A DNA stretch of 61,789 bases, counting the filler, from Hausera hauseri (lineage: Eukaryota): NCBI GenBank assembly GCA_046269625.1. It is 12 parts of 12 records of this genome, joined end to end, with 100 filler letters (N's around TTAATTAATTAA, not from the genome) between each part and the next. Parts side by side here need not be neighbours in the genome. Positions count along the whole stretch, not along the records: positions 57,597 to 61,789 come from JBJURY010708658.1; 11 more parts are not named here. One strand, written 5' to 3'. The notes under the pieces are model-generated. The model did no database searches and was not told where the DNA came from. It worked only from the letters and a program-made list of their open reading frames with translations. The position numbers and the translations under genes were made by a program. Each line of letters starts with the position of its first letter. The stretch's first letter is position 1. Of the stretch, positions 6,249 to 61,789 are shown piece by piece.

Positions 6249-6249
6249 C

Positions 6250-6830
6250 GTGTCAGCAGTTTTCAAACTTTGGTATGTTTGTAAGTTTTCATGTCGGCGA
6301 TGTTCCAAAACTCAGATTTTCATGTTAGAATTTTTTTCACACTGACAAGTTTTCATGTCGACAACTTTTGTGTCGTCAACTTTCATGACGACAACTTTCG
6401 TGTTGTCAACGTTTATGTCAGCGACTTTGGTATGTCAGTAAGTTTTCATGTCGGAGATGTTCCACGTCTCAAGTTTTCATGTCAGGATTTTTCACATCGA
6501 CAAGTTTGCAAGACGGCAATGTTTATGTCAACAACTGTTGTGTCGACAACTTTCGTGTCGACAACGTTCATGTCAGCGATTTTATGATACCGACGTCTTT
6601 TTATGTTGGCTATTTTCTTGTTGTGCGTTGTCATGTTGACAACTTTCGTGTCATCAACTTGCATGTTGATAATTTTCGTGTCGTCAACTTTCATGTTGGT
6701 GACTTTGTCATGTCAGCTACTTCTCATGTCGATAACTTCCATGTTGACAACTTTCATACATTCATGTTGTTGTCTTTGTAATGACGAACAGTTTTCACGT
6801 TGGCATTTCTTCATGCTCAACATTTCCACC
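6250..6830 (+). repeat. ~15-bp minisatellite (GTCGACAACTTTCAT/CGT)
   Basis: Many degenerate copies, which produce the VDNFH/VVNFR-repeat ORFs in the ORF track. Confidence 0.88.
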
Positions 6831-6884
6831 GTACTTTTAAGAAGTTCCTCTCGGACGAAAAGACATTTTTTGCACACGACACAC

Positions 6885-8280
6885 TGCTCCCATGGCCATA
6901 CCCAATCATGAGGAAGACGATCTAAACCACCTCCAGTGCCCCTATGAAACACAACCTTAACAGAAAATATGTCACTTCCATGACCCGACGTGGTCCCATA
7001 AGCATAAAGACGACGATCTAAACCACCTCCAGCACCCTTCTATGACCCGACTTGCTCCCATAAACATGCTCAGGCATGAGGAGGACGACCTAAAGCACCA
7101 CCAGCACCCTTAAGAAACACAATGTTAACAGAAATCTGTCAATTCCATGACTAGACTTATTCCCATAAGCATGAAGACGACGACCTAAACCACCTCCAGT
7201 ACCTTCAAGAAACCCAACCTTAACGGAAACGTATGTCCCTTCCATGACCAGACTTGCTCCCATAAATATGAAAAAGACGACCTAAACCACCTCCAGCACC
7301 CTTCCATGACCCGACTTGTTCCGACAAACATGAAGACGACGGCCTAAAACGTCTTCATTAATCTCTTGCATGTCCTAACTTGCTCCCAAAGACATGAAGA
7401 AGACGACCTAAACCATCTCCAGTCCCTTACGATACCCAACTTTAACAGAAAATATGACCCTCCAATGACCCGACTTGCTCCCATAAGCATGTTCAAGCAT
7501 GAGGAAGACGATCTAACCCACCGCCAGCCCCCTTAAAACACCCAACCTTAACAGAAAATATAACCCTTCCATGTCCCGACTTGCTCCCAAGGACATGCTC
7601 AAACATGACGAAGACGACATAAAAACCGCCAGTATCCCTAAGAAACACAATCTTAACAGAAAATATGCCACTTCCATGATCCGACTGGCTCTCATGAGCA
7701 TGCCCAATCATAAGGAAGACGACCTAAACACCACCAGTACCCCTAAGAAACCCAACCTTAACAGAAAAATGTTATATTTCCATGATCCGACATGCCTCTA
7801 AACATGAAGAAGATGACCTAAACCACCTAAGTACCCATAAGATGGCAACCTTAACAAAAAATATGACACTTCCATGTCCCAACATGCCCCTAAACATGAA
7901 GAAGATGACCTAAACCACCTCCATTACCCTTAAGATACCCAACCATAACAGAAATTATGGGCCTTCCATTCCCGGTCTTGCTTCCAAAGACATACTCAAG
8001 CATGCAGAAGACGACCTAAACCACCGCCAGCACCCTTAAGAAACGCAATCTTAACAGAAAATATGACCCTTCCATGACCAAACTTGTTCCCAAAGACATG
8101 TTCAAGCATAAAGAAGACGACCTAACCCAACGCCTGCACCCTTGAGTAACGCAACCTTAACAGAAAATATTATCCTTCCATGACCCAACTTGCTCCCAAA
8201 GAAGTAAACAAGCATAAGGAAGACGACCTAAACCACCACCAGCACCCTTACGAAACGCAACCTTAACAGAAAGGATGACA
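6885..8280 (-). repeat. Same satellite in reverse orientation (right arm)
   Basis: Modules TTCCATGACCCGACTTGCTCCC, CAACCTTAACAGAAAAT and GAAGACGACCTAAACCACC are reverse complements of the left-arm modules. Confidence 0.92.
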
Positions 8281-8703
8281 CCCCTAACAATACTACCCCT
8301 CAAACGACACGGTACATGATGATATCTAGACATAACATGCCACGAACCCTGACACATCACCTCTCCTCATGGGAAACACTATACATAGACATGGCGGTGC
8401 CAGAAGGTCTTGGTCGCCAATAACTCGGACAATGCTACCCCTTATACGACCTGGCACATGTAAAACATAGACATAACACGTCATAACCCCCGTCTCATCA
8501 CCTTTCCTCATGGGAATCAATAAACCAAAGCATGGAGGTGTCCGAAGCTCTTGGTCCCTAATAACGCTAACAGTGCTACCATTATACGACATGGCACATG
8601 ATAATATCTTGACCTAACACGTCATAACCCCGCCTCATCACTCCTCCTCATGGAAAACAATGCACGTAAGCATGGAGGTATTCGAAGGTCTTGGTCAGTA
8701 AAT
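8281..8703. repeat. Three tandem copies of a ~142-bp unit
   Basis: Anchor ACAaT(a/g)CTACC recurs at ~8287, ~8429 and ~8570, each unit containing CTCATGG and TCTTGGTC. Confidence 0.88.
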
Positions 8704-18586: not shown

Positions 18587-19879
18587 CGTGATGCGTTAGA
18601 TAAGACCCTGGACTCGTGTATAAATAGAATGATGGTAATAATGATGTTGTTACTATAAATAGCGGTCACCCTAGTGGCTACAAATTTAGCGCCTGTCGTG
18701 TTTGTGCTGCTGCATTGGTGAGAGAGCAGGACAGTTTTGTCATTTTCATACAAGCGATATCGTCAAACGTGGAATATCGTAGCGTCATCAAAGTTCTTGT
18801 GCTGAAAGGCACTTAGAATAAAGAAATCATCCAACTACAGGAGGTCTACTAGAACCAGGGTTCATCACGTTCAAGGACTTACAACTGGATTGGGGAGTTT
18901 AAACGTGGTCGACAGTCAGTTTTAGACCAGGAAAGAGAGGGAAGATCGCCTGATATTTCCGATGAAAAACGAGAATTGTACCAGAAAATTGTCCTCTCTG
19001 AACGCAGAATTAGCATTCGTGAATTGGCGAAACGTCTCCATGTCAGTTCGTTCACTACTCAAGCAATCCTGAAGGATTTGGACGTCAGAAAACTTTCCTT
19101 GCGCTTCTTTCACAGATTCATCAGTGGAGAAATGGCCGCTCAACACCTGGCGTGTTGCAAAGCCAACCTGAAGCTCTACGACAAGTATGGCGATGCTTTT
19201 CTTCAAAACATTGTCACAGAAAACGAGACTCCAGTCAGCCTCTATGTCCTTGAGAGTAAGAGGGACTCTTGAGTGGTGAATATCATCTGAATCAGCTCCA
19301 CGCATTCTCCGCAGTGTGACATCTCACGGACGGGCTGCCATGCTTACTGCATTCTGGGATATTCGCGGCATTATTAAGATCGATTTCCTGGACCGAGAAG
19401 CCACGATGAACTCACATTACTACAGTGAGCTCATGCATGATGTGCGAAAACGTCGACGAAAGTCTCCAGGCATCCCTCTCTGGCTGTTGCATGACAATGC
19501 TCCAATTCATACTTCACAAATCTCCTCGGTCACAACAGAAGAGTGTGGCTTCCAGCTTGTGGCGCCTTCACTATACATCCCGAACCTGGCTCCCAGTGAT
19601 TTTGTGCTATTGCGCCACCTCAAGCGACATCTGAAAGGCCACCATTTTCAATCCGCAAGAGAACTGAAGGAGGAAGTGGAGCAAATCCTGAAAAATTGGC
19701 TCCAAATTTCATCAGAATGCCCTTATGAAGATCCTTCGACGCTGGAAGAAATGCGTAGAGGAAAAAGGTTCATACATTGAGAAATAAGTGTATGTTGGGT
19801 TATGTAAATGTCATTAAAATTTGAAAAGGTTTGGCCTCTTTTTTCTTGTCGAGTCCAGGAATTTATCTAACGCATTACG
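18587..19879 (+). mobile_element. Full-length mariner (DD34D) transposon with pseudogenised transposase (~18757-19787)
   Basis: ~30-bp TIRs CGT(G/A)ATGCGTTAGATAA..CCTGGACTCG; TA on the right and CA on the left; motifs FKRGR, IVTENET, FWD, LHDNAPIH, and 34 residues to APSDF; stops and frameshifts. Confidence 0.93.
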
Positions 19880-25200: not shown

Positions 25201-27197
25201 AGTTGATGTCCTTTTTAACTATGCGAAAGCAAGACGTTGAGATGTAGGATTTAAGATGGGAGTCTACAGATAAGAATGGTTGAGGCATATTATCGAAAGA
25301 AACTGTTGCAGTAATTGACGAAAAACAACTGGTATTGCCACAGTCAACATTCAGTTTTGATTTCTGTTTTAAATAGGTTTGTAATTGTTATTCATAACTG
25401 AAAAAATACTAACATTATTGAAAGTTTTGTCAATTGTTGAGGAGGTTTTCAATATATTTACAGATGAATGCAATGAATTGCTTGCTAGATTGCATATGAG
25501 TCATTTGATTGGATTTGCGATCTAATTTCTGTGCACTAGACAGTTGTATTTGCAATCAACTAACAGATCATGTGCAGCCGGGAAATCTGAGCCGATTATT
25601 GGTGACTTTATATTAGCTATGATGAACTTCCAAACAAACTTGTCTTGTAAGTTGTAGAAGGTAAAAGTTAGCTCTGTGGTGCCAACAATGCGCAAAGGCT
25701 GCCCACTGGCTGTGAGCAGTTGAGGCGAAGAAATTTGTTTGAAGTTGGTGCAAACGATAGCGGAAAAAACGAAAAGGCGGTTCCAGAGTCGATGAGAAAG
25801 TCTATATTTGATGAATCGTCATGGAAGATTTCAGCTTTCAACAGAAAGCCTGCAGAGGTGGTATTAAGACGGCCAGAAGAATGTAATGCATTGCCTATAC
25901 AAAAATGTTCCGTGGAATTTGGCGGCGTTATTAGTTTTTTGAAGGGTTTGGGAAAATGGGAAATGGAGAAGAAATGGAAGAGATTTATTTTTGTAATGTT
26001 TGCAACCAGGCACACATGATATGGCCTGTGACTGATACTTAGTATGGTAGATGCAAATGGAATTGTCCACAGCGTATCGTTCACTGTAGAACCGATAGCC
26101 CAAGAAATATTTCCTTGCATCCTTTCGAAACCGCGTATGATAGAATCAAGTCATACATCCACCAGGGCATGTGGATCGAGGAGGGTGTCTTGAAAGACTT
26201 CGCTTTATTGAAGGCCTAATTTCACTTCGTCAAGGCCCATTAAGATTGTTTAGTTGGGTGGTAATGGTCGAAATTGACTGCTGTAATATATCAGATTGTT
26301 GCTGCATCATTTGCAATTGTTTAGCGAAAGATGTGGTGTCTAAATTTGGCGTGTGTGGTTGCAGCCGAAATTGGAAGAAAATTATTTGTGTGGAGGATTT
26401 CAAAGGACTTATCAGCCATTATGACCATTTTTTCAATAGCCTTGGAGTCGTCTGCGACAGTAAGCATGGCTCTGATACAGATGGGCAAAGGCGACAAGAA
26501 ATAACGGCGAATTAAGTCCGCGTTATTTGTAGGCGTTACTCCAGAGGCACTAAGTTGAAATATGGCAGTTTGGAGAAAGTCGGATGGCTTTTTGCTTTCT
26601 ATTTCATGATCATTGAAGTATTTTTATATCATATTGCCTATCGATGGATTCGTGATATGGAGTACAGACTCAAGGAGTGTTTCGTAAGGTGTCAAAGATT
26701 GGAACAGTTCGAAGATGTTACTGATCTGCTGCTTGGTGTTAGCAGGCAAAAGAATTAAAAGACTGTTGGCTCGCACAAAAGTGTCAGTTATATTGTTGGA
26801 TTTTAGCCACTTGTTGGAATTGGAGTCATTTTCTACTGGAATTATTTTTATCAAGAAAAAAATCCACACAAGGTAGATTTGGTGAGGCTCTTGTTTCATG
26901 AGAGTTTGATAAACGATAGATAATAAATGTGTTTGTAGATTTATCATCTGAGAAAGATTGATTTGGGTCCGATACACCCCGAAGGTGAAAGTTGACAGTG
27001 AGATGGATGATCAAATGTTCATGACGTTTGAATAATGAGAGGGAGTCGTAAGAGTGCATAGTAAGACCTTGATATGTGAAGTAAAAGTCAGAAGTGTTGA
27101 ATAAGGAGGACACGGAGTTATATAAGGGCTGTGCTATTCTGTTGAGAGGAACTCTTATTGTTTTTTTATGCTGATTATTGCTGAAAACCAAAAAGGA
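22240..27197 (-). mobile_element. Gypsy family 1, copy E (near full length, decayed)
   Basis: Ubl-like N-terminus (26976-27197), Gag, two CHCC, AAAAAAC-TAA (25931-25940), protease LIDSGT, RT 24536-25288 (YIDD), RNase H, integrase with YVGPY, poly-G PPT 22336-22351, LTR start TGTAGTGCC at 22335. Confidence 0.94.
26976..27197 (-). pseudogene. Ubiquitin-like domain at the Gag N-terminus (copy E)
   Basis: SFLVFSNNQHKKTIRVPLNRIAQPLYNSVSSLFNTSDFYFTYQGLTMHSYDSLSLFKRHEHLIIHLTVNFHLRG; alignable to copy L 58014-58229 and in frame with the Gag start. Confidence 0.62.
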
Positions 27198-28486: not shown

Positions 28487-31400
28487 TTATTCGTCATGTG
28501 ACGAGTCATTGTCCTGGGCGCTCACGTACGGAGTGTTGTTCTGGAATATATAACTGTTTTTTTCTATGTAAGCAACACAGTCAATGATCAATTGGCTGAG
28601 GTCCGGTCTTTTTAGAATGACTGAAGCCCACTGAGCATCTGTGACATTCTTCGATTTTTTAATATGGTATGTTGATGTTAAGGGGCACTTGACTATGTAG
28701 TGCACTGATGTTGAGAGTTCGCCACAGACGCAGAGTGGGGAGGAAGATTTATTTATTCTATATAGGTATGATTGGAAGGGGCCGTGATTTGTGAAAAAGA
28801 GGTAAAGATTCCGGTGTAAAAGGAGAAATTCAGTGTTGACTTTCGGAAAGAAATTAAATGTATAACGACCTTCCTTTGCTGTTGCCCATCTGTGTTGCCA
28901 GTCCCTCAGTATTGTTACTCTTTGTTGTCTTTTCAAATATGATGGTGGTGTTGGAAGAAAGTACTGTGGGGTGTCTTCTTTTATTGAATCTTTTGCTAAG
29001 GTGTCCGCTAATTCGTTACCGTAGTTTCCGACGTGAGCTCGGACCCAGGTAAAATATATTTCTTTCTTTGTGGAGTGAACCAGTGTTATGATGTCATTAA
29101 TCAGTGCGTTCTGTGATGCAAACGAAAGTATTGCTTGTAGACCAGAGAGGCTGTCTGAGAAAATTATTGCTGAATGAAATGAACAAATTCGGAGCCAGAT
29201 GAGTGCATTTTTTATCGCAAATAGCTCAGCCTGGAAGACCGAGTTGGACTCGTGAAGTTTACCTTTCCAAGTATGAACGATATTTCTACCTTGTAGTGCA
29301 CCAAAGGCTGCACCACAGCCATCGTCTGATTTGGAACCGTCCGTATATATCTGTATTTCTGTTGTTGGAGGATTTTCTGTTAATTTCAGTGTATTCGAGG
29401 CTGGATGGAACACATATTTTGAGGTTTTTGATTGGTAGTACAGGGGATTTTGGTTATTGACAGGGATACGATGACGAGTAACCGAGCCCAATGTGGCTTC
29501 CTGGCTGAGTTTTAGATCCAGCGGTAATAAACCCGTTAATGTTTGGAGTGCCACAGTTGAGGTTTGCCTATATGCACGCGTGATCGCCAAAAGTGCAGAA
29601 CGCTGAATGGAGGAAAGAAGTTTCTGACCGTGTACTTTTTGCATGTCAAAGTACCATGTCGAGCATGCATAAGCTACAGTTCTTTCTAGGATAGAAGAAT
29701 ACCAAACCTTTTGAATTATTTTTGAAACTCCCCCATGGATAGCCGCAAACTTGTAAAGATTTTGTACTTTGTCCTTCACTTGATCCCTTTTTTTCCTCAA
29801 ATGTGGCAACCAGGAAAAGGACCTATCCAAAGTTACCCCTAGATACTCCAGTTCATAAGTTTTTTCCAGTGTTTTACCCTGTAGGTGAAACAGTGGCCTT
29901 CGACGTAAGTGGTGGGGATTTCCAAATGTAAGGACTTTACATTTGCTTATTGAAATTTCTTGACCATGTTCCCATGCCCAGTTTTGGATTATATCTAAAG
30001 ATTTGTCCCCTTCAAACTCTAGCTTTTCCCTCGAGGAACCCGAAGCAATGAGTACTAAGTCGTCTGCATAGGCCACTAATTTAGAATTTTCTTGCTTGAA
30101 TGAAATTAGTAAGGAGTTTAATAGTACTTGCCAGAGCAGTGGACCTATGCAAGAGCCCTGAGGACAGCCCCTGTAAAGTCCGTGCTCCACCTCTGGGTGC
30201 ATCCAGTCAACGATGGCCCTACGTTCAGAAAGGAATGAGGTAACTATGTTAACCAAGTCCTCTGGTATCTCATGAGTCTTGAGATATTCTATCGTTTTGT
30301 GCCACGGAAGGCGATCAAAGGCATTTTTGAAGTCTATTGTTATGACTGATGTATAATTTCGGTTATCTTTACTCGATTTTATGTGGGAAATTACCTGATT
30401 GATTGCTGTTTCCGTGGACTTTAATTCAGAGTAACCATGTTGGTTTTTAGAGAGATTTGATGAACGTGAGAGATGATAATTTAAACGACCGATAATCATT
30501 TTTTCGAAAATTTTTCCAAAGATAGGCAAGAGTGTTATCGGTCTGTAGGAGGAGGCGTCCTGCTCATTCCTTCCTGGTTTAATGAAATATACTAGTTCGC
30601 CGACCTTCCAGGCCCGCGGAAAGTAGTTAAGTTTTAGGAGTGCGTTATATAATTTCAAGAGGAGATCGGATAGTTTTGAATATAACTTCCTGATAATATG
30701 GTGGTCTATTTCATCAGGACCAGGTGCCTTATTAGCATTGAAAGAAAATATTGCAGTGTAAAGCTCCGCTGGCGTGAAATGTGGTGAATAGTTCACCTGT
30801 GTTATATGCATTGGGGATGGAAAGGAAGATTGACCAAAAATCTGTTGTGTTAAGTTCTGTAAGACGGAAAGTCTTGTTGTCGGTTCATTTGCTGGTGTAG
30901 TCTGGTAAAGTTGGATGTTCGTTTGAATGAATTTATTGAAAGCCATTTTTTGGGCTTTGCCGTAAGGATTGTTTACAGAACTACAGAAGGAGATCCATGA
31001 CCTCTTTTTGGCTTCTTGAATGTTCCTTTTATAAAGAGCTCTTTCTTGTTTGTATTTGATTTTGATTTCTGTTGAAGCGTTTATTGCTTTTGAGCGCTTG
31101 TACATTGCTGATAATTTATTTCTTTGTATTTTTAAATCGTTATTCCACCAACAAATTTTTGGTTGTAGAAAGCTGTTACGTTTTTAAAGGAATTTCTCGC
31201 AATTTTTTTAGAATAATTTCCGTGAAGATATTGAGTTGAGAATCTAAGTTGGTTGTGGTTGAAATGTCGTCAAAGAGAGAGTGCCGAATAGAGATGTCAT
31301 GTCGAACTGAATTAGCAAATTTTGACATTGGAACATTTTTTGTTTTGAAGCGTCTTTTAGGTTTTTGCGGGATAGGAAGATCCAGTTTTATTTCGATTAG

Positions 31401-32009
31401 TCTGTGATCGCCAAAAAGGATGTCATGAACTCCCCAGTGAACTATATGTGGGAAGAGTTGAAAGGAAGAGAGTGTGACGTCAGGCCAACCATGTGCTTGT
31501 GGTACTTCGAATGTTGGTTGACTATTGGGATCGTTTACGACTATTAGTCGACATGAAGCGCAATGTGTGATTAAGTTTTTCCCCCTGGAATCTTCTGCAG
31601 GATAGCCCCAAAGAGGACTATGTGCATTTAGATCACCACTTAATAAGAGATAATTGCTTAGTCTATCCAATGAGGCCCAGCCTAACAGGTCTTCCTCCAT
31701 GTTTCCCGAGGGTGGAGAATATTGTGTGCCTATTGAGATTACTTTATCGTGTAGATTAGTGTTGATAAAGACTGTATTTTCTGTTTTTAGTGTAAGACAG
31801 TGTGTTAGGTTTTGATCTATAATAATAATTAAGCAATTTTTTGAGACTGAGGTGTAGAAGGGCAGTATAGAGGGAAGACCGAAAGGCCTATTATTATGCA
31901 GATAAACGTCCTGCAGGACAGCTAGGGAAAAATTATTTGTTATAAGATAGTTCAATGCTTCGGCAGTTGCAGACTTATTGTGTTGGAGGTTTATGTGTGC
32001 TATTTTCAT
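28487..32009 (-). pseudogene. LINE ORF2: AP endonuclease, RT, RNase H, CCHC; frame disruption near 31180-31210
   Basis: HINLQH, GDLNAH, GDH (APE); PGPD, GCPQGS, YADD (RT); YTDGS, ELFAI, SDS, AHVGNYGNELAD (RNase H); CVCG..H..C. Confidence 0.95.
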
Positions 32010-33181
32010 GTTTGAAGTGAATTTGATATTTTGTTGAGTCTTGTTCTCTCTTGTTTGAGGGCTACACGATAGAATTCGCAACTGCCGGAATAAGCCGTAT
32101 GTCTAGTGTTGTAGTTAGTGAGTTTAAATTTATTTGAGTTGATGCAATTTATACACCTATGGAACTTTGGGTCATTTTTGTGTGGGCAATAGTCTGAAAA
32201 GTGTTCTCCTGAACAATGGACACAGATCGAAGGACCCTGTGCTTTACATACCCTTGCATGATGCCCCAGTGCTTGACACTTGTAGCACCTTGTTATTGTT
32301 ATGTACTTCCGTATTGGGCAGCTACGAAATTTAAACAGGAGACGACCTACCTGTAGTAACTGCTGTGCTAAGTCTTCTTCTATGTCTAGTGATAGATGGT
32401 AAGTCCCGTGATTGGTATGCAAAGGTTTTCGAAAGTCCACTGTAATGTCTCTTTCTAAGTTGAGGGTGCATTGAATTTTTGTCTTGATTTGCTCGCTGGT
32501 TACGTGGTCCGGAATATTGAAGAGCATTATACGATGTTTTTTGGGTCCTTTCACTGTTATGTACAAGTTCTTTATTATTTCTTCTGCTGCATTGAGTTTT
32601 CCTGCAAGTTCTTCTGTATCTTTGTCTGTAGCACATTCTATTAAAATATTGCCTGCTTTCGTTGGGCGACATTCTGTTGGAGATGCGTTAATGTCATAGT
32701 CGTCGAGTTTATCTAACTTTTCTGTGATTTCTCCAGGCTTCATTGATGGTTTTTTAGGCCGTAAAATTATTGCTTTTTTCCGTGCTATTGATTTATTCAG
32801 GACATCTGAGTAAGATTGTAAATTTTCTGGCGTTTTCTAGTTGTTGTCCACTTTGTTATCCGATTGTGGTTGGTTCATTACTTCCGTTAGTTTGTTGATT
32901 TTATTGAGGACAGCCGACTCAGTATAATGCCATCGCTCTACTAAACTCCGGTGGTAGGCATTAAATTCTATCAGAGTTTCCTCTAGCTTGGTGATGGTCT
33001 TTGCTGCTTTGTTTGTGGTTTGCTCTCTTAATGATTGAATAAGTTCAGCTAGTATCTCTCCGTAATCCTTTTCTGTGATGGAGAATGGTGGAGGATCATT
33101 TTTTTCCGCTGCATCTGATGTTGCTGTCTCCTGTGCCTGGTCGGTGTCGTTGCAGTGCACTTTATCGTTGTTTCGTGCCAT
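32006..33181 (-). pseudogene. LINE ORF1 (gag-like nucleic-acid-binding protein), one internal TAG
   Basis: ORFs 32837-33181 and 32006-32743 share a frame, split by a single TAG at 32837-32839; knuckles CYKCQALGHHARVC, CVHCSGEHFSDYC and CINC...HTAYSGSC. Confidence 0.9.
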
Positions 33182-33895
33182 TATCAGAGCTTTGCTGTAG
33201 TAACACTAATGTTATAATGATAGTGAAGACACTTAATAAAAGAAGATAAAAACTGATTCATGCAAGTGCCACGGGCTTGTGGGCCTTCCACCTGACAAAT
33301 TCACACACACACACACACACAAAAAAAAAAAAAATCTCACAGTTTGGCCAGGTGTTGACCAGCTAGAACAGCCAGTCTAGCACGATGCACAAAAGAAGGT
33401 CTCAATCACATACAGGAATGCCTCCATGGGTCATTGTTATTTATTGATGACATCTGTTCCAGCTTAAATGGCCACAGAAGGTACGAGTACATATGGAAGT
33501 CTCTTTTCACAGGAGAGGGGCTTTAGCTTCCATAGCGGATGTATGAAGAGAGTTTGCCCTTTTCCCTCATACCTGCTGCTGACTCCGGCTGGAAAGTGAC
33601 AACTATCCTACATCTATCAATGCAAGATTTATGTTTTTAGCAGCTTTCTCTTTGGTAGCTGTGCCCCACTACCGGCAATGTTTTCCCTCCACATTCTTAT
33701 TAGTTTAGTTTATTGCAGCAGCACGTCTGGTGAGGTCATTTATGGCCAACCAAGGTGGTATGACAAACTCATTTATAACTAGCAGACTGGAGTGCNNNNN
33801 NNNNNNNNNNNNNNNNNNNNNNNNNNNNNNNNNNNNNNNTTAATTAATTAANNNNNNNNNNNNNNNNNNNNNNNNNNNNNNNNNNNNNNNNNNNN

Positions 33896-38805: not shown

Positions 38806-39357
38806 AATACACGTCCTGAATTTTTACAGAATTATTGCTAACATGTAACAGTTATATTGGATCATGCTCATCAACCGCTGCAACAAATACTCATGCAAGT
38901 CACAACAGTTCCTTTCTTTGTTTTTGTTTAAAATAACAAGCCATTAGTTGGAATGACCTTCTGATTCAATTTTATATTTATAACATTTGTAATTGAGTCA
39001 TTTTTATTTCATTTACAGGCTTATGAAAAATTTATAATTTCGCACGAAAATTATATTTTCACTATAGTTTCATTCTAACATTATCAGATATGTACTAACT
39101 CGTAAAAATGGTAGGAAGGAAATAGTGCAATTAATGCAGTCTTGAAAACAATTAATTCTACAGTTAAAATTACATTTACATAAATCCCAATATACACTCT
39201 TAAAACTCCAGCAGAGTCTACATACAAATTATTTCGAGTTTAAAGGAAATTCTAATCGTTGTCAAATAATTGGGCAAAGAACTTTGTAATTATTTCTATT
39301 GGATATATGATCTATTAATATTACTGTGATTCATTACGGATTCTAAATTGAAGTATC

Positions 39358-40179
39358 ATGGCAACACTTGACAGAAGAGTTGTCGTACCTTGGTTGATTA
39401 TAAGTTATTCCACAACAATAATTGGTGGTTTCGGTAATTTATGGTTTCTTTATGTTGTGAAAAAATACATGTGGGATAAACCGAACTACAGGATTTTATT
39501 TGGCATAATGATTTTCAACATTTTATGTGATTTTATATTCATCCCAGTTAAAATTGTTCAAACCCACTTGTATTTCCAGGAAAATATTTTGTTTGGTAAT
39601 AATTTGTTCTGCCAGATTTTATCGTTACCATTTAACATTTGCCTATTCTGTTCAATGAGTGGCCAATTTTTGGCGGCCGTTTTTCGAGGCTGGGCTGTGT
39701 TCTTTCCAATTTCATTTAGACGATTCGCAACGATTCGGTTCATTACGATAACGTTTGTTATTGTTGCTGTTGTCATTCCAGGTGTATACCATTTTGCTAC
39801 GTTCCCGTGGGCCATCAATTACGTTTATGACATGACGTATGGAGACTGTGAAACAAGGTACGGCACAAAGAATTCCAATATGATTCGATCGATTATATTT
39901 ACGTACACGCCTTTAGCAACGAGTTTTCTCATTTATATTGGGATATTTTGTAAAATTTTAACGTTGAAATCCACTGAAAGAGCCCAAATGATAAAACTCA
40001 CTCGTGGCAGTGCAGCCATGTTCTTTTGCCTTGTCGCATATGCTGGTTTAGTTATGCCTCTTTGGATCAATTACAGCATTGGTAATCAGTATTCGGCAAT
40101 AAACTATGGGATATGGACGAAATGGGCGTACAGATTTAGTTATTGCGTTGATCCGGTTAGAATTTTAAAAATATGTTAA
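39358..40179 (+). CDS. Divergent class A (rhodopsin-like) GPCR; 3' end possibly spliced at CCG|GT (40156)
   Basis: Seven hydrophobic segments; TM1 GN, TM2 ILCD, TM3 Cys, R-x-x-AVFFP after TM3, ECL2 Cys, TM6 Pro, TM7 VDP. Intact 273-aa ORF. Confidence 0.85.
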   Translation: MATLDRRVVVPWLIISYSTTIIGGFGNLWFLYVVKKYMWDKPNYRILFGIMIFNILCDFIFIPVKIVQTHLYFQENILFGNNLFCQILSLPFNICLFCSMSGQFLAAVFRGWAVFFPISFRRFATIRFITITFVIVAVVIPGVYHFATFPWAINYVYDMTYGDCETRYGTKNSNMIRSIIFTYTPLATSFLIYIGIFCKILTLKSTERAQMIKLTRGSAAMFFCLVAYAGLVMPLWINYSIGNQYSAINYGIWTKWAYRFSYCVDPVRILKIC

Positions 40180-49709: not shown

Positions 49710-52109
49710 TTTTGTGTCCGGATTCCGTTGATGGAAAACCCCGCAACCAACCCACGTCACTATTCACATGCGCTTATAAACAAAGTAAATTTTGCCGGAA
49801 CTTCCTAATGATAGGCACTACAATACCCCCAGTGGCTGAGTTGGGAAATTGGAAGATAAGATCGAAAGGAACTCTGAGAACAAACAAAAGTGCCTAAGAA
49901 GTTTTCGTGAGTATAAGTCGTTGTACTCATTCGCCGTTTAATTCTCTGCTATAGTTACTGAAAGTGACGGATTTAAAACGTACCTTCTTTGAAGAGTCTG
50001 GATGCTGGTGAGGTTTATCAGCAGAAAATAAGGTTGAATGTGGAGCAGAAATGTGAGTAGAAAGAGGGGTAGATGGCGAAATCGAGGTGGCAACGGGAAT
50101 GGAATTGGTACGAGACAATGTAAGTACAGGGGTGATAGCATTAGGTAAATGTGTGATGGACTGGGGAGTCTGGGTCAAGGTGGTGGTAGGTGTGGGAAAT
50201 GAGGTTGTTGTTTTCGTTATTGAGGTATCGTCGACATAAAAGGCAGGTTTCACATTCGTAATGTGTACTGCGACCTCTTCACCATCTTTAAGGATAATAG
50301 CGTTATGTGATTGTAACTTATTTAACTTATATGGCCCTAAATACTGTGGTTGGAAACAGCAAGGTGACTGGTTTTGTAGCCATACAAACTTTGCTGAGTA
50401 CAAATCATCAGGTATATAGGATTTATCGTTGTGTAAAAGTCTGCAAAACGAATCTTTGCTAATAGCAACAAAATGGTCCTGTGCTGCTCGTATCCTCTCA
50501 TCTGTGGGAGTTTCCTCTAAAGCAGTTAATTCGAACAAAGACCGTATAGGAGTACCGAATAATGCTTCTGTTAGTAAGCATCCTGTGGATGTGGACGGAG
50601 TATTCCGCCAGCCAAGCAGGACAAAAGGTAGAAGTGTGGTCCAATTGGTGTTTTACTGTGCAAGGATTCGCAGTGATGTTTTTAGAGTTCTATGAAAACG
50701 TTCAAGCAGACCATTTGACTGTGGATGATATGGTGTGGTATTAATATGACTTATACCTAATCGGTTTACTAAAGATTCAAACTGCGAACCTTGGTCTGAG
50801 ATGATATAGCGGGGAGATCCGAATCTACTAATCCGCGTGCGAATAAAAGTATCAGTTATAGTGTCAGTATTTGTGCTCCGTAGTGGAATGGCTTCTGACC
50901 ATCGTAAGGCGCGGTACATCATAGTCAGAATAAATTGGTGGCCGTTGTCTATTAGAAGAGGACCGACGATATCGATGTGTACTGTCTCAAAGCGTGATGT
51001 GCATGGAAAATGGTATAGTTGTGGCTTTAGGTGTTTGGTGATTTTATATTTCTGGCAAGCCACACATTCTTTGACCCATGCTTGCACATCTGAACGCATA
51101 GTAGGCCATATCACTTGTCGATTAAGTAGACGGAAGGTAGCCTTTGCGCCAGGGTGATGCAATGAGTGCACACTCTTAAATGCGAGTTTGTGTAAAGATG
51201 GTGCGAGAATGATTTTTGAATGTCCTGGTTTTGAAATATCCACAGCCACACCGTCAATTACCTGGTGGAATTTGAACAATTTAAGGATATCTTGCGATGG
51301 TTGATTATCATGGAGCTTTTCCTGAGAAAAAATTAATGAAAAGTTGATTGATCCGACTGATCTGGACAAGAAATCAACAACTAGATTGTCAACACCTTCT
51401 ATATATTTGATGTTAAAGTTAAAGGTGGACAAATAAGAAATTTGCCGTTCTTGTCGAGTTGAAGGGTGCTTCATTTCCATTATATGAATTAACGGCTTAT
51501 GATCAGTCTGTATAACAAAATGACGTGCTGTAAGTAAATGCGAAAAATGCCTTAATGCGAGAACTATGGCCAAAAGTTCCCGATCGAAAGTCGAATATCT
51601 AGTTTCTTGTGGTGTTAATTTTCGAGAAAAAAATTCTAGAGGTTGGTTTTCTCCTTTGTATAATTGGTGTAATACGGCTACTACTGCAGTATTTGACGCA
51701 TCTGTAGTTAAGATTAACTCAGAGTCAGATTTAGGAAATGCCAGTATTTCCACAGTTTTTAGTCCTTCACGTAACTTGTCGAAATATTTGACCAGTTGTG
51801 GCGTCCACATGATTTTCTGGTGTTTCTTTCCTCCACTTAAGTGATCGAAAGGTGCTGTAAGTTCCGAACAGTATGGGATATACTTGTGGAAGAAATGTAA
51901 GGTGCCAAGAAAACTGTGCATTTCTGTGGTTGTCTTCGGTAACTGGACATTTTTAAGAATCTCAACTCGATCAGGCTGAGGTGAATGGCCGTATGGTGTG
52001 ATAATATGTCCCAGGAAATTAACACGCTTTTGAAAAAATTGCATTTCGCAAAATTGATTTGTAGATTGTATTGGTTAAGACGTTTGAAGATGGATTGCAG
52101 ATGTTCCTC
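49710..52109 (-). mobile_element. Gypsy family 1, copy J (RT end, RNase H, integrase, 3' LTR start)
   Basis: 463-aa ORF with TTDAS, RELLAI, TDHKPL, HSLHHPG-CVAC, HIDIVGP, SDQGSQFE, GLLERFHRTLK; YLGPY; tail KKVRFKSVTF; GGGGG then TGTAGTGCC at 49822. Left boundary approximate. Confidence 0.94.
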
Positions 52110-54966: not shown

Positions 54967-57496
54967 TGTGAGGATATAATCGAGAATTCAAATTCTAAAT
55001 TTGAATTAGAAGCATTTTTAAATTTTAAAAATTCGACCACGGATATAATTTTAAAATGTAATATTAAAAGTATAATTAAATTTTGGAATTTTTGGAAAAT
55101 TTGTTTCCAAATGAGTATTTTGAGGCAGGAAAAAGAACGTTTGAAGTAGGGGATCAAGTGCTTGTACGAAAGGAATTCGGAACAAAGGAGAAATACGAAT
55201 ACGAAGGCCCGTACACAATTATTGAGAAAGTGCACGACAGACGACACGTAATACGACATGAAGATAGCCAAACCTTGGAAGGAAACGTAGAGAAACTACG
55301 AAGATTCTTAAAAAAGGGGGATGTGAGGATATAATCGAGAACTGAAATTCTAAATTTAACTTAGAAGCATTTCTAAATGTTAAAAATTCGACCATGGATT
55401 TAATTTAAAAACATAATATCAAGAGTATAATTTACTTTTAGAATTTTCGGAAAATTTGTTTCCAAATCAGTATTTTGAGATAGAATAAAATTTTCAACAA
55501 CTGGTCTTACTTTGCCATGAGTAATTACAAACGATCAAATTCTGCTTTAGCGGACATACCAAGGTGCGGGGATTTCCCAACCCTACCTAAGCTGGAAGAC
55601 GAGGTGGACTACATGGACGTATCAGCGGCAAACATGGCGACTTACGACACAACGGACATTTTTATGAAGCAATTGTTGCCCAACAAATTTAGGAAATGCG
55701 ACGACGTGGAGAGGTTCATTAAAGGATGTGAAAAATTCCTTAAATATATGAACACCCCGGCAGCGAAGTGTGAAATCATTGTTGAATGCCTCTTGGAGGA
55801 AGAAGCACAAGAAAGATACGAGTCAATAGATGCAAAGATAACTGGATATCAAAACCGATTACCGAAGACTTTCGCCCAACCCTCAACGATGTGCAAAGAC
55901 CTGAAGGAAGCGCTCGAGTACAGAATGAATGGAGCAGAACCGGAGGCTTACTTCGTAGCAATGGAGAAACTGCTGGATAAAATCATGAAGCACAATCTTT
56001 CACGCGAGGCTATAAAAGAGGAATTATTGTTCCAATGTTGTTACAATAGAGAGATGGGAAGAGAAATATGCCTCAGTGACAAACAAGACGCGGAAACTGT
56101 AAATGAGAAAATATGGAAGATACATGAAGTAAAGATTAAGACAGAAGAAGTCAATACGGTCAAGGAGTATGCAGGGATCGGTAGAAGAAGCTACCAGGAA
56201 GTGGCAGCACAAAATATCGGGGAATCCGTTCCTAGAATTAACACGATCCTTAATAGGCTACCAAATAGTGGATTAAAGTTTTGGACATGCCAGAAGGAGA
56301 GGCATACGAGCAGAACTTGCACCACACTGAGACAGATTAAATGCTTTGGATACGGAAAAGAAGGAAGTATAAACAGGCAGTTTCCCGAAAGAAAACCAAT
56401 GAGATTCCAGGGATGTGGTCAGCAAGGCACATCAGACCAAACTGTACAAATCTTAGCTATGCAAGATGTCGCCATAGGGGACATACCAAAAGGAGTGCTA
56501 CACCAGGTTGGAGGGGAAAAAAGAACCATGATTGGATATATACGACGTCAAAAGAAAGTATGGGGATAATCTGAATAGAAAACGGGGGGAAGTCGCAATC
56601 GTAGAGGAAGGAGAAACAGAATCGGAACTGGAGTCAGTTGCCTCAAAAGGCAGAGCCTTGATAGAAGTGGAGCAAAATATCGTTATGTATAATAGTAGTA
56701 GTATATCAAACAGTATAGGCAAATCAAGAAGAAGGGGACACAGCGATATAGTGATGAATAGAAAGACACAGGAAAAAGTAAGGAAATTTATAAAAACGGA
56801 AAATTTCCAGGACGTATCCTTCAACAGAATGGAGGAAAGTGGGAACTATACGCAGATCTTCATGGTAGAGGAGTTGTACGTCGAACAGATATTATACAGG
56901 AAATTTAATTGACGACCAGGAATCAAATTAAAGATACAAGACAGATGGGAAGATTGCTTATTGGACACGGGGGCCAGAGTAAACGTCACAAGCAAAAAGA
57001 CCGTGGATAAATTTGCAAATACACACATAGAGAAATCAGATACCACACTACGATTCGCGAACAATAGCCCCTTATATTGCCTGGGTACATATACAACAGA
57101 CGTAGAAATTAAGGGTCTAAGGAGACGTGTGACATTTCTAGTAGTGTCGGAATTGCTCCCATAAATAATAGGTAGTGTTGACCTGCAAAAGGCATTTTGA
57201 ATAGAACTGGGATGGAAACGCATGGAAACGGAGATATTACGGCAAGATATATGCAACCTGGAAGCTACGTTCGGCCGTAAGGTTAGTAAGGAAGAACGGG
57301 TCAACAGGGTGAAGGAAGTTCTTTAGGTGAGTGACAACAAAGAGCTACTCATCATTATACAAAAATACCCAGAGGTATTTATGGCTGACAAGTGGAACAT
57401 AGGGTGCACATATCTCATCAAACACGGAATAGACACGACAGGAGCGCCGATCAATATCAAACCTCACACGCAACCAGTAAACCTAGAGAAAAAAAT
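54967..57496 (+). mobile_element. Gypsy family 2: partial LTR, IN tail, PPT, LTR, gag, protease, RT start
   Basis: Partial LTR 54967-55124; FEVGDQVLV..YEGPY (55125-55310); PPT AAAAAAGGGGGA; LTR 55322-55499 (TG..CA, 178 bp, AATAAA); LLDTGA at ~56958; RT start IGCT.LIKH.IDT. Confidence 0.9.
55517..56569 (+). pseudogene. Gag of Gypsy family 2 with up to four decayed CCHC knuckles
   Basis: KF..CDDVERFI capsid-like start; WTCQKERHTSRTC, CFGYGKEG, GCGQQG/HIRPNC, RCRHRGH (last two across a frameshift). Confidence 0.8.
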
Positions 57497-58013
57497 NNNN
57501 NNNNNNNNNNNNNNNNNNNNNNNNNNNNNNNNNNNNNNNNTTAATTAATTAANNNNNNNNNNNNNNNNNNNNNNNNNNNNNNNNNNNNNNNNNNNNGAGA
57601 GTCTTCTGCCGATTTTAAGCAACACTCCCACGTAGCGAGTAAAGACTGACCGAATCCTACGATCCCAATAGGTAATTATTAAACATTTAAAGAATCTGGA
57701 GACAATATTAACACTAGTGTCATACGTTAAAATGACTCACGACGTTACATATATCATAAAAATGCGAATATACTACATGACACAGAATAATTTCGAATAA
57801 TGTCGATAAAACCATCACAAAATACGTACGTATCAAAGACCTTAAACAGAAAACATGCAAATTCGACACTATAGCTACGATGGAACTCAAAAGGAGGGAC
57901 TCGACAACTTCAATGTTTCGGTTTCGACGTGGCGGCGCCGAATTCATGGCTACCCGCTCTGGGCCGTTGGGTCGGACAGTACCGTTCGCGGAGACCCCGC
58001 GACACGCCCCACA

Positions 58014-58229
58014 CTATTTTCCCTTTTCTTTTTTTTAAATAACAAACATATTTACACCATTAAAGCATCACACATAAACACTAAATATATTTACAACACC
58101 ATCTGCACTTTTACCTACTCACCTGATTTCTACATTACGTACTACGGCTCTAAAGTATCTATCTGTGGGATCCTAAATCTTTCTTCGCCTTATATCCACC
58201 GCCATATACACTTCCGCATCCGTGGGGGC
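58014..58229 (+). pseudogene. Ubiquitin-like domain ending FRIRGG, fused in frame to Gag (copy L)
   Basis: LFSLFFFLNNKHIYTIKASHINTKYIYNTICTFTYSPDFYITYYGSKVSICGILNLSSPYIHRHIHFRIRGG|MNSS; 72 codons, followed by ATG 58230 and Gag. Confidence 0.68.
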
Positions 58230-59301
58230 ATGAATTCATCGCCAACCATAGACAGCACTGATAAAACCACCACGAAACCATATCCCGTTATACTACTCCA
58301 AGAACCCACTATTACTTCTACTAATAACACTTCAACCCCTAATTCTTCTGCTCCTTTCCCCCACAGCATGGAATTCTTCGTTGACAATCAAGGTTCTAGC
58401 AAAACTTGGCTGCAATTTCACCAACTATGTTTACAAGCAAACAACGTTACCGATTAAATAATTAAAGCACACAACCTCCTCTTCTTACTCCCTAACAATA
58501 TAAAACACGAATTCATAACATCATCGAAATCTTCGAACTTCCTGATCCGTATTCACAACTCTTTAACACCGTTCTTAAGATAACAGAACTATCCATGGAC
58601 ACTATCATACAACGCTTCTTCCACAACAAAGCCATGGGTACACAACAACCATCAGACTTTTCACATACTTCTTCGGCACACCTCCAAATCCTAAACGTTA
58701 CAAAAGAACATAATCCAGAATTGCTTCGCCATTATTTCCTCAACGCCTTACCCATCCAAATTCTGACCTTACTTACCTTCGTGGAGGACTGCACGGCTCT
58801 TGAAAAATTGGCCGAATTAGCCGACAAGACACACGACGTTCTACACTTAAACTTTCCACCAGTCATTTCAGCCGCAGTAGCTGCAAACGGTATTCACAGC
58901 AACAATGCATCGATAGAACAACAGCTCAATCAACTACGTGGTGAAAATGCCGCATTGCACCCAACAATTAGCAATATTAATAACAAATTAAATGAACTTT
59001 CGCTGTCCCATCAAAGGGATTTTGTCGCTGATCGCGTCCATTCTGCATCTAGAAACCGGTCACCATCCCCTGTGCGGTCGTCTATCTGCTATTATCGCAG
59101 CAGATTCAATAAAAGTGCCAAAATGCTGCCTAGGGTGCAGATTTTATAATATAAGTTTTTTTTAGATACCGTTGTTTGCATTTACGACGCAAAGTTTAAA
59201 AACCAAGATCGTAAATGCAGTCCAGGCTGCACTTTCAAAACCGATACGAACGACGGACGTGATATCTTTCCTTCTAATAGTTGTCCTAATTCATCTTTTC
59301 A

Positions 59302-59373
59302 AAAAAACTAAATTTGCCGCCAGAAGTCACGGCAAACTCTGGCAAAGGAACTTCTTCACCTTCTGAATGCCAA
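59302..59373 (+). promoter_or_regulatory. Putative -1 ribosomal frameshift signal (gag/pol)
   Basis: A AAA AAC in the Gag frame followed by TAA; the -1 frame reads into the protease; downstream stem GCCAGA/TCTGGC. Confidence 0.8.
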
Positions 59374-61789
59374 CGCGCCTCTTTTTCTGTCTTTACTCTA
59401 AAGGCTGCAATCACCGCTCCTGCAACGCAATTCGTTGATTTCCTCATTGATACAGATGCTGCGATTTCTTTATTGCCACAAACTTTTCCTGTCCAAAATT
59501 CACCATTCAGAATCAAGTCTTTATACACCGCTTCAGGCCAACTGCTGCACATTTTCGGCATGGCTAAACTATCTTTTTCCTTACCAAAGTTTCATTCACC
59601 TTTCCACTGAAGGTTCACAGTTGCTAATGTCCAGACGGCAATTCTAGGTTCTGATTTTTTATCACATTCTAATTTATTGGTTGGCTGCAGTCAACGATGT
59701 CTTAGGAGAGGCATCACTGGGAACGTTACTTAGCATATAAATAGCATTTCGACTACCGCGCAGTCGATTGGATTGCGGCGATCAATTTTTAGGAAATCAC
59801 AAATTAATTCGAATTTCGGTAATAATTACATTTCATTCCGTAAATTTTTAAATCATAACATTCATATTCAGTCGAATTTCGATGTCGTCAGTTGTGGTAC
59901 TGTCACCGACGTTAATTCGCTCGACGAAATCACTTTGTCCAACACCATTTTCAATTCGACCGTTTTGCTCCAAATACCAATCGACTTTACATCATCAAGC
60001 AATTCACAAATTGCAGCTGTTTCCACTCAAGCTGTTTCACCATCATCACGGAATCTCTCACAATTGCCTACAATTTTGCAGCAATTCGTCAATACATCAT
60101 GTCCAAGTGTACTTAAAAGGATCGTACATTTACCCACGCAAACAGCACTTTACATCACATAATTACACAGTATCAACGACCAATACGCCAAAAGGTTCGA
60201 ACACTGTCACCTCGTCGTAAGCAGGCCGTAGGAGCCGAATTTCTTGAACTAGAACGCTCCGACAGTGTGCGCCGTCTCAAATATCCTTGGTTGTCACATT
60301 TACTTTTCGTACAAAAAAGAACGGAACTTTTGGACCATGTGGTGATTACCGACAGTTGAACAAATTGACCATTATGGATGCGTACCCCCTGCCACTAATC
60401 AAGGATATCTTGCATCGCCTTAATTCAACTGCCATTTATTTGACCATCGATTTGGCCAAAGCATATCGCCAAATACTGGTGGCACCCGAAAACATAGAAA
60501 AAACTGCTCTCACTACCCCTTTTGGTCTCTACGAATACCTGTTTATGCCATTTGCTTTGCGAAATGCTGCACAAATCTTTCAGCGACACATTGATTCAAT
60601 TGCCTCAGATTTATCGTTCGAGCACTCTTACATTGAAGATATTCTGATCATTTCGTCTTCAGTCAAACAAAATGAGGAACATCGCCGTGCAATATTTCAA
60701 CGCCTTAGTCACCATAATCTCCAAGTCAATTTCGACAAATGCCGTTTCTTCAAAAAGCGCCACGTTATTTCACCAGACGGCCATTCTCCTCAAGCAGACC
60801 GAGTTGAAGTACTTAAGAATATCCAGTTACCATGTACGACCACTGAAACACGCAGCTTGCTTGGTACACTACACTTTGTACATAAATATGTACCATATTG
60901 TTCTAAACTGACAGCACCATTTGCACACTTATGCGGCGGCCTAAAACATTAGCCAATTCAGTGGACACCTGAATTGGCTGAAAAATTTGATAAGCTGCGC
61001 GAAGGGATTAAGGCTGTCGACATTCTCGCTTTCCCCAAACCTGATGCGGAATTTATCCTTTCGACGGACGCTTCAACCACTGCGGTAGGTGCTGTACTGC
61101 ACCAGCTCCACAAAGGAGGAAACTAACCCCTAGAATTTTTCTTTCGTAAATTAACACCCCCTGAAACTAGAAACTCAACGTTCGATCGCGAATTATTGGC
61201 CATTGTTCTCGCTTTAAAGCATTTCTCCCACCTACTTGTCGTCCACCATTTTAAGTACAGACCGATCACAAGCCCTTAACTAACATCATGGCTATGAAAC
61301 ATCCTTCCACACGCCAAGAACGACGGATATCATATTTGTCGAGATTTAAATTCGCCATAAAACATATCAATGGGGTTAATAATGTAGTTGCCGATTTTTT
61401 ATCTAGGTCGGTTAGTTCGATTAATTTTTCACCAATTTTTACCCAAGCACAAGTTCAACAAAACTAGCCACCTCAGGATATGCTTAATTCTTCCAAGCCT
61501 TGCACAATCATTGACGGCGTAGCTTTAGACATTTCCAAACCAGGTCGTAACGTAATAATTCTTGCACCACCTTTGCAAAGGCAAGCATTTAATAATGTAC
61601 ATTCGCTACATTACCCTGGTGCTAAAGCCACTTTTCGTTTACTCCACGGTCAAGTAATTTGGCCCTCAATGCATTCCGATGTGCAGGCATGGGTTAAGGA
61701 GTGTGTGGCTTACAAAAATACAAAACAACTAAGCATTTAAAGCCACCACTGTTCCACTTTCCATGCACATCGCGTTTCGAATCCGTGCA

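Follow-up and report, generated by a model that had tools for sequence, protein, structure and literature searches.

In a clade of animal Gypsy LTR retrotransposons, ORF1 comprises a leader, a ubiquitin-like (Ubl) unit, Gly-Gly and Gag in one frame, and host deubiquitinases probably cut after the Gly-Gly, releasing Gag with a defined N-terminus. This reading draws on sequence comparison and on analogy with known ubiquitin fusions. If it is true, a retrotransposon clade would need a host deubiquitinase for the production of its capsid protein, a point of host control of which we found no description for LTR elements. The clade also offers at least 51 ubiquitin-derived units as a natural series, running from 75% identity to unrecognisable and all with the cleavage tail, in which the minimal needs of deubiquitinase recognition are testable, and the linker would explain how an element tolerates a 5′ leader that is translated, changes fast and absorbs host sequence.

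Copies L and E in the window

The window, meaning the whole stretch of 61,789 nucleotides from Hausera hauseri that was analysed, consists of short scaffolds joined by N-linkers and comes from an AT-rich genome, most likely that of an animal, as its non-LTR element with RNase H and its mariner transposase indicate. It contains five copies of a single Gypsy group, all decayed; two of the five, here called L and E, retain the 5′ end of gag. Their features are given below, where labels of the P0152 type denote predicted relative proteins; labels of the L001 type, used later, denote contig loci.

57846..58013 (+): leader of copy L, 56 open codons in frame with the unit, ATG at 57855
57990..57998 (+): candidate decayed primer-binding site, GGAGACCCC, the sole GG.GACCCC match in the window
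58014..58229 (+): ubiquitin-like unit of L, 72 aa, ending RIRGG (identity to P0152, 34-relative profile, model and fold search)
58224..58229 (+): Gly-Gly codons of L, predicted cleavage site (sequence; depth peak and silent-only common variant in run X1)
58230..58454 (+): spacer at the N-terminus of Gag in L (Met 58230), then the capsid start (58374), closed by a premature stop
58496..59146 (+): remaining Gag of L past the frame break (42% identity to P0145, 40% to P0152)
59290..61789 (+): decayed pol of L, with protease, RT, RNase H and integrase start (Pfam RVT_1, RT tree)
26973..27197 (−): ubiquitin-like unit of E, cut by the scaffold end, ending LRG-V (profile 27.3 bits; 32% identity to P0152)
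26324..26972 (−): decayed Gag of E (58-66% identity to P0152 and P0180 over 26324-26623)

Copy L has a single stop-free frame of 203 codons (57846-58454, +). Within it, the preliminary description had reported 72 open codons in frame with a Gypsy Gag and ending RIRGG, and these are present at 58014-58229, where the segment ends in IHRHIHFRIRGG (RIRGG) and is followed by Met at 58230; the capsid start motif (FFVD..SSKTW) lies at 58374 in the same frame as the unit. The stretch 57846-58229 was stop-free in 8 of 5000 shuffles. Its leader portion, 57846..58013, was stop-free in 522 of 5000, so the openness of that leader is not significant alone. The homology claimed for E is borne out by tblastn across the Ubl and capsid start (E = 4.5e-7); E (26829-27197, −) begins at its scaffold end, and its tail, LRG-V, carries Val at the place of the relatives' second Gly. 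Both copies are decayed, as also described before: the frame of L is closed by a stop at 58455 and broken near 58500, and E has a stop at 26826-26828 besides its frame breaks. L and E are dead members of the Ubl-Gag clade in which the unit is strongly diverged. The low-copy leader of L (57846..58013) is probably the sub-family's own LTR or leader, and GGAGACCCC at 57990..57998, which we take to resemble a tRNA-Trp primer-binding site, is possibly a decayed site of that kind read in frame.

The L family was followed in X1, the sole DNA run listed as containing it and possibly the origin of the window itself (no RNA run was listed), where 351 contigs lie on 57990-58260. The Gly-Gly codons have the greatest summed depth (8989 at 58220-58229), every indel over the unit region stays below a 30% share, and the sole common difference within 58206-58260 is silent. 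Between L and the commoner X1 letters there are 26 changes, 7 silent and 19 replacement, as expected from neutral decay; these counts were rejected as a selection test, being uninformative on selection. Upstream of about 58010, cover falls to 2-5 contigs. The two start codons proposed for L, ATG 57855 in frame and ATG 57946 in another frame, exist as described, and neither is common to the X1 contigs covering them among the matches listed. Similarly, the stop at 57843-57845 that bounds the frame in L is absent from the four covering contigs among the matches listed, and the leader frame therefore seems longer in sister copies.

Past gag, the Ty3/Gypsy order of protease, RT, RNase H and integrase was found, with RT in L marked by a Pfam RVT_1 match (60248-60949, E = 1e-20) and intact relatives alike; a sister copy at 50656-52074 has RNase H followed by integrase. 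An A7C run stands at 59301-59308 (+) in the gag/pol overlap of L, and gag in L003-L022 ends with an A-run plus C at the stop, pol overlapping in another frame and Gag ending KN. This A-run plus C, in L and relatives, is likely a −1 frameshift site. A purine tract and a TG start mark the 3′ ends of four window copies, and the 5′ LTR of L had no match to any other LTR within the window. At the 3′ ends near 22340 (−), 37730 (+), 49820 (−) and 480 (−), three share only TGTAGTGCCT past the purine tract and the fourth has TGTTGTGCTT, with complete divergence beyond; on this comparison, conservation of the LTR body does not seem to extend from one family to another.

The ubiquitin-like unit in related elements

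Relatives were gathered in two ways. The RT motif pattern of the clade, used alone, yielded 22 loci on 21 metagenome contigs, of which 13 contigs extend upstream past the start of Gag, 2 have their first residue at the capsid start or within it, and 6 are without a capsid start; Gly-Gly precedes the Gag start in all 13 of the first kind. A search of 1.84 billion representatives with a profile gave 150 rows among the matches listed, from which 48 extending into Gag (3 of them duplicate loci) were kept and 102 multi-repeat ubiquitin-like proteins were left out. Together with 12 metagenome loci (the near-duplicate L004 dropped) and 6 loci of G001, the profile relatives make up 63 proteins, 51 of which carry Gly-Gly 8-62 residues ahead of the capsid start. 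These are 51 of the 51 whose N-terminus reaches the site; 7 of the 63 are without a capsid start, and none has a long N-terminus without Gly-Gly. The remaining 5 have fewer than 60 upstream residues and no Gly-Gly; four clade proteins of this kind may reflect either truncated gene calls or a real loss of the unit. The wider set is not selection-free, because its profile included the unit, and the 13 RT-chosen contigs are. In downstream Gag, Gly-Gly occurs at 4 of 12,798 positions. The C-terminal Gly-Gly expected of a Ubl is thus found in L and 51 of 51 relatives, and not in decayed E.

The neighbouring residues follow a ubiquitin-like pattern, with Leu, Ile, Val or Phe at P4 in 50 of 51 relatives and Arg or Lys at P5 in 43, and the kept tail is usually R-L/I-x-G-G. 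The residue after Gly-Gly is most often Ser (20), followed by Thr (8), Asn (6), Ala (6), Gly (4) and Met (3), and in no case among the 51 is it Pro. The unit body shows 9-30% identity between many pairs while the tail is kept. In 10 of 10 divergent pairs (the near-identical L003/L004 left out), pN of the unit is below pS (0.18-0.56 and 0.43-0.90, respectively), which is weak evidence because silent sites are near saturation.

The capsid start matches PF23055 in 21 of 33 scanned relatives at E ≤ 0.02, several over the cut-off. The Gag of L had no Pfam match, yet it is 40-42% identical to P0145 and P0152, an identity that places it as a DUF7041-type Gypsy Gag. The Ubl unit is absent from one generic DUF7041 protein, P0228.

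Ubiquitin ancestry is clearest in the near-canonical units of L011, L012, L015, L022 and P0121, which exceed the Pfam cut-off. For the first four the ubiquitin match amounts to 68-86 bits (14-24 bits or none in the other RT-chosen loci), and the unit of L022 is identical to ubiquitin at 57 of 76 residues. Searches with L and E alone came back empty. In the family profile check proposed earlier, neither unit matched a Pfam ubiquitin family; the L unit had no match among PDB sequences or in the ESM Atlas, and E no ubiquitin family match there either. Word-based protein searches with the N-terminal frame and Gag of L showed no ubiquitin likeness, Pfam found nothing in 10 open frames (the L leader and 3′ LTR regions of two other copies), and viral contigs held no relatives, giving one weak unrelated match. 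A 10-relative profile scored L and E at only 7-8 bits, L mostly from its tail, and ranked neither first in the window; a wider profile was needed.

That profile was built from 34 diverged relatives without window rows (one row, P0161, was cut at the wrong Gly-Gly). It gave 20.3 bits for L and 27.3 for E, reached by 0 of 1000 full shuffles each and, with the tail kept, by 1 of 1000 for L and 0 of 1000 for E. Without the last 7 residues the scores were 16.4 and 24.3 bits (0 of 1000 shuffles), and near-canonical units scored 41-54 bits. With P0145 and P0152 removed from the profile, L fell to 12.8 bits, reached by 37 of 1000 tail-kept shuffles. P0152 is 32% identical to residues 2-72 of L and 32% to E. 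The earlier suggestion of ubiquitin-like identity is therefore upheld through intact relatives (the profile of 34; L022), and the alignments indicate that the unit is homologous to ubiquitin, shown through relatives only.

Two predictions bear on the proposed beta-grasp fold. Folded from its single sequence, L reached a pLDDT of 42 with no fold match. An alignment-based model has the order strand-strand-helix-strand-strand-strand (pLDDT 63.6), and Foldseek, with a best E of 1.5e-3 and no match at 0.001, returned only ubiquitin, SUMO and ISG15 among the matches listed (TM 0.65-0.79). Model and fold search are not independent evidence, because 3 of the 13 alignment rows are near-canonical. The unit appears, from the model, to have a beta-grasp fold.

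Intact relatives show where the unit sits. Several of their contigs are circularly permuted forms of a unit of 4.9-5.5 kb, in which pol is followed by a purine tract with TGT, an AT-rich stretch, an open frame across TGGTGTCAGAAG and then the Ubl unit. On its sequence and place, the TGGTGTCAGAAG motif would be the primer-binding site, presumably of tRNA-Leu type. Upstream of the Ubl unit, all 7 of the 7 loci tested have 102-350 stop-free codons, a length that none of 2000 shuffles reached in any of them, and other frames of the same leaders contain 5-34 stops; in seven loci the motif lies inside the frame with an in-frame Met upstream of it. In an eighth locus, L011, the frame is broken past the motif, which makes the count 7 of 8. 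The leaders contain tandem repeats whose periods (36, 39, 48, 75, 78 and 105 nt) are all multiples of three, and the leaders are barely alignable among relatives. A common leader peptide, WCQK, was rejected as a protein motif, being primer-binding DNA read in frame. The open frame of ORF1 in relatives appears to begin within the LTR and to pass through the predicted primer-binding site before it reaches the unit. Since 102-350 open codons lie upstream, and since a Met between Gly-Gly and capsid is absent in 38 of 51 relatives (present in 13), these sequences indicate that the unit links two parts of ORF1 from within instead of forming its N-terminus.

These results revise the preliminary description in two respects. 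Its Ubl does lie directly ahead of Gag in frame, and is not N-terminal in ORF1; its Met 58230 is not a typical Gag start, because Met directly follows Gly-Gly in only 3 of 51 relatives (P0143, P0144 and P0145) besides L. Its other expectations fared better: Gly-Gly is conserved (51 of 51 relatives reaching the site, 13 of 13 RT-chosen contigs), the frame is preserved across copies (no indel at 30% share in X1, leaders open in 7 of 8 loci), and none of the three outcomes it named as adverse, namely no fold, Gly-Gly not conserved and a neutral 5′ UTR, was seen.

In an RT tree of 41 rows, the window copies and P0037 form a 100/100 group nested in a 97/96 group of 28 rows that contains all Ubl-bearing loci. 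Among the tree rows, the survey of the trait covered the 28-row group as opposed to the 13 outgroup rows, so the clade boundary of the trait is provisional. Near-canonical units are nested among diverged ones. For instance, L011 and L019 are 89% identical in RT and 27% in the unit; the L011 unit shares 55-58% identity with the near-canonical group, and the spacer of L011 is 77-79% identical to those of L012/L015, a pattern that identifies the L011 unit as a module swap. Silent divergence between L015 and L022 is 0.43 for the unit, below the 0.75 found for Gag. From these small samples we infer at least one recapture of host ubiquitin.

Host-gene pieces lie upstream of the unit in some predicted relatives. 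A Pfam scan of 33 found them in four, H2A (P0139), 5′-nucleotidase (P0142), CNOT1 with Rrp44/Dis3 (P0152) and cohesin SA (P0129); Hsp90 (P0143) and Arp8 (P0144, E = 0.001) add to these, and P0158 has a piece that we take to resemble LRRC47. Such pieces may be spliced gene calls joining neighbouring host exons, and leaders known as DNA gave no such host-gene Pfam match.

G001 (L024-L038), filed as a bacterium, contains many Gypsy fragments and ubiquitin, as well as a piece that, by motif, we assume to be teneurin-like; it is apparently mis-binned animal DNA. Two of its loci, L031:3-1301 (+) and L037:2-715 (−), have ubiquitin ending Gly-Gly fused to a different coiled-coil protein (Pfam ubiquitin match of 66 bits in L031, E = 0.002 in L037). 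Their motifs resemble BEL/Pao Gag, and Pfam on the two loci did not confirm that identity. They are a possible second origin of the ubiquitin fusion.

Predicted processing and alternative readings

Under the reading we favour, translation would start at an AUG in the LTR and the ribosome would read through the leader, whose sequence would be free to drift, expand and take up host scraps if in frame. The unit would then fold and be cut after Gly-Gly by host enzymes, and the leader-Ubl piece would be discarded. The pattern of the tail and the missing Pro behind it fit such a cut, and a linker of this kind would not require conjugation to targets. With Met right after Gly-Gly in L and a Met ahead of the capsid motif in 13 of 51 relatives, some elements could start Gag without cleavage. 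We tentatively extend this to a possible cargo gate: any in-frame sequence in the LTR or leader, including the H2A, cohesin SA, CNOT1 and Rrp44 pieces, would be translated and released separately with Gag intact, the linker being refreshed from host ubiquitin, swapped between families and maybe having a second, separate origin in a BEL/Pao-like element from these hosts.

The released leader-Ubl piece could instead be a working product, either a decoy that sequesters the deubiquitinases or conjugation enzymes of the host, or a vehicle for host-gene fragments that interfere with silencing. Conjugation requires a free C-terminal Gly-Gly, which cleavage would leave on this piece; CNOT1, Rrp44/Dis3, H2A, cohesin SA, 5′-nucleotidase, Hsp90 and Arp8 pieces occur upstream in predicted relatives, and a diverged unit seems to have been replaced by fresh ubiquitin at least once. 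Against this stand leaders with no common protein motif (WCQK being primer-binding DNA), a poorly kept unit surface, and host pieces that vary by element and may be spliced gene calls, and we regard a working product as rather unlikely. It is distinctly unlikely that the unit stays on Gag uncut as a folding, trafficking or proteasome/ESCRT-docking domain. The fold does appear, in the model, to be kept well past sequence identity, and ubiquitin fused to retroviral Gag can affect budding. What is kept, however, is the cleavage tail and not a binding surface; the capsid would bear 100-350 variable, often hydrophobic residues in front; and near-canonical ubiquitin followed by a residue other than Pro is normally cut.

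A third reading concerns the L family only, in which the unit would be vestigial and Gag would start at Met 58230 while other branches still use cleavage. Met directly follows Gly-Gly in L as in P0143, P0144 and P0145, the L unit is among the most diverged, and ATG 57855 is not common to the four covering X1 contigs among the matches listed. We nevertheless consider this highly doubtful, since Gly-Gly and frame are kept across high-depth X1 copies, Gly-Gly is followed by Ser in P0152, a close and intact relative, and by no Met in E, and absence of the stop at 57843-57845 from those four listed contigs suggests a longer sister leader. That the segment is untranslated leader resembling ubiquitin by chance is extremely improbable: the missing direct database matches of L and E would fit it, but position, frame, length and tail agree with true ubiquitin in related elements, both copies beat all 1000 shuffles even without the last 7 residues, and the profile scores, together with Gly-Gly in 51 of 51 relatives and 13 of 13 RT-chosen contigs, refute it.

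Known systems and other features of the window

Cellular ubiquitin fusions parallel the predicted Ubl-Gag precursor. In ubiquitin-eL40 and ubiquitin-eS31 (PDB names), ubiquitin likewise stands in frame ahead of a released protein, and FUBI-eS30 and Sde2 are Ubl precursor fusions whose downstream protein is released by deubiquitinases. The unit is N-terminal in these cellular fusions, whereas in Ubl-Gag it is internal, behind a variable leader and in a mobile element. The preliminary description knew of no LTR retrotransposon with this architecture, and in the open full-text literature we likewise found none with ubiquitin ahead of Gag; annotations in Repbase or GyDB could already note the domain. 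Word look-up in the accessible text of PMC5408684 and PMC2774666 gave no mention of ubiquitin.

Pestivirus polyproteins with ubiquitin inserts (BVDV Osloss, CP1, CP Rit) are cut by cellular hydrolases to give the authentic NS3 N-terminus (PMC8310069). As is predicted here, captured ubiquitin lies inside a polyprotein, behind unrelated residues, and host hydrolases set the N-terminus of the next protein; the inserts are sporadic recombinants in single RNA-virus strains, near-identical to ubiquitin (PMC8310069), whereas the Ubl-Gag unit is a fixed clade trait that has drifted far with its tail kept, ahead of a capsid protein. The closest element found, Burro (GYPSM1) of planarians, is a giant Gypsy-like element with a ubiquitin-fold domain in a polyprotein of ~4,900 aa with a typical Gag N-terminus (PMC6431247). 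Its Ubi2/SUMO-like domain lies downstream of Gag, between MATH and BCL-2, and the part of that source consulted gives no Gly-Gly processing role (PMC6431247). The Burro layout, a giant Gag-first polyprotein with internal SUMO-like, MATH and BIR domains and Env, differs from that of our relatives, which are 4.9-5.5 kb with the Ubl ahead of Gag.

Other retroelements share single aspects. The 2A peptides of non-LTR retrotransposons are also a borrowed device that splits one retroelement frame into two products, but they act by ribosome skipping and not through a host protease (PMC3708506). Yeast Ty1, like the Ubl-Gag relatives, has its primer-binding site inside ORF1; unlike there, that stretch lies within Gag itself, and the accessible text describes no ubiquitin unit (PMC4974528). 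In animals, LTR-mediated retroposition by template switching puts pieces of host mRNA into LTR elements, often in frame, and so offers a ready route to capture ubiquitin and leader cargo; the resulting retrocopies are flanked by LTR pieces, whereas the Ubl unit is a functional module conserved in an autonomous element (PMC5131818).

Elsewhere in the window, a second, unrelated decayed LTR element (55484-57496, +) has a purine-rich gag with no Gly-Gly unit in view. An open frame of 275 hydrophobic codons at 39352-40179 (+) looks like a seven-helix receptor exon and had no Pfam match. A non-LTR element that is almost complete, encoding ORF1, endonuclease, RT and RNase H, occupies 28487-33205 (−), a broken mariner-type transposase lies at 18853-19780 (+), and complex satellite-like repeats in both orientations fill 4821-8500 around a short block of 30-nt-type repeats at ~6250-6830.
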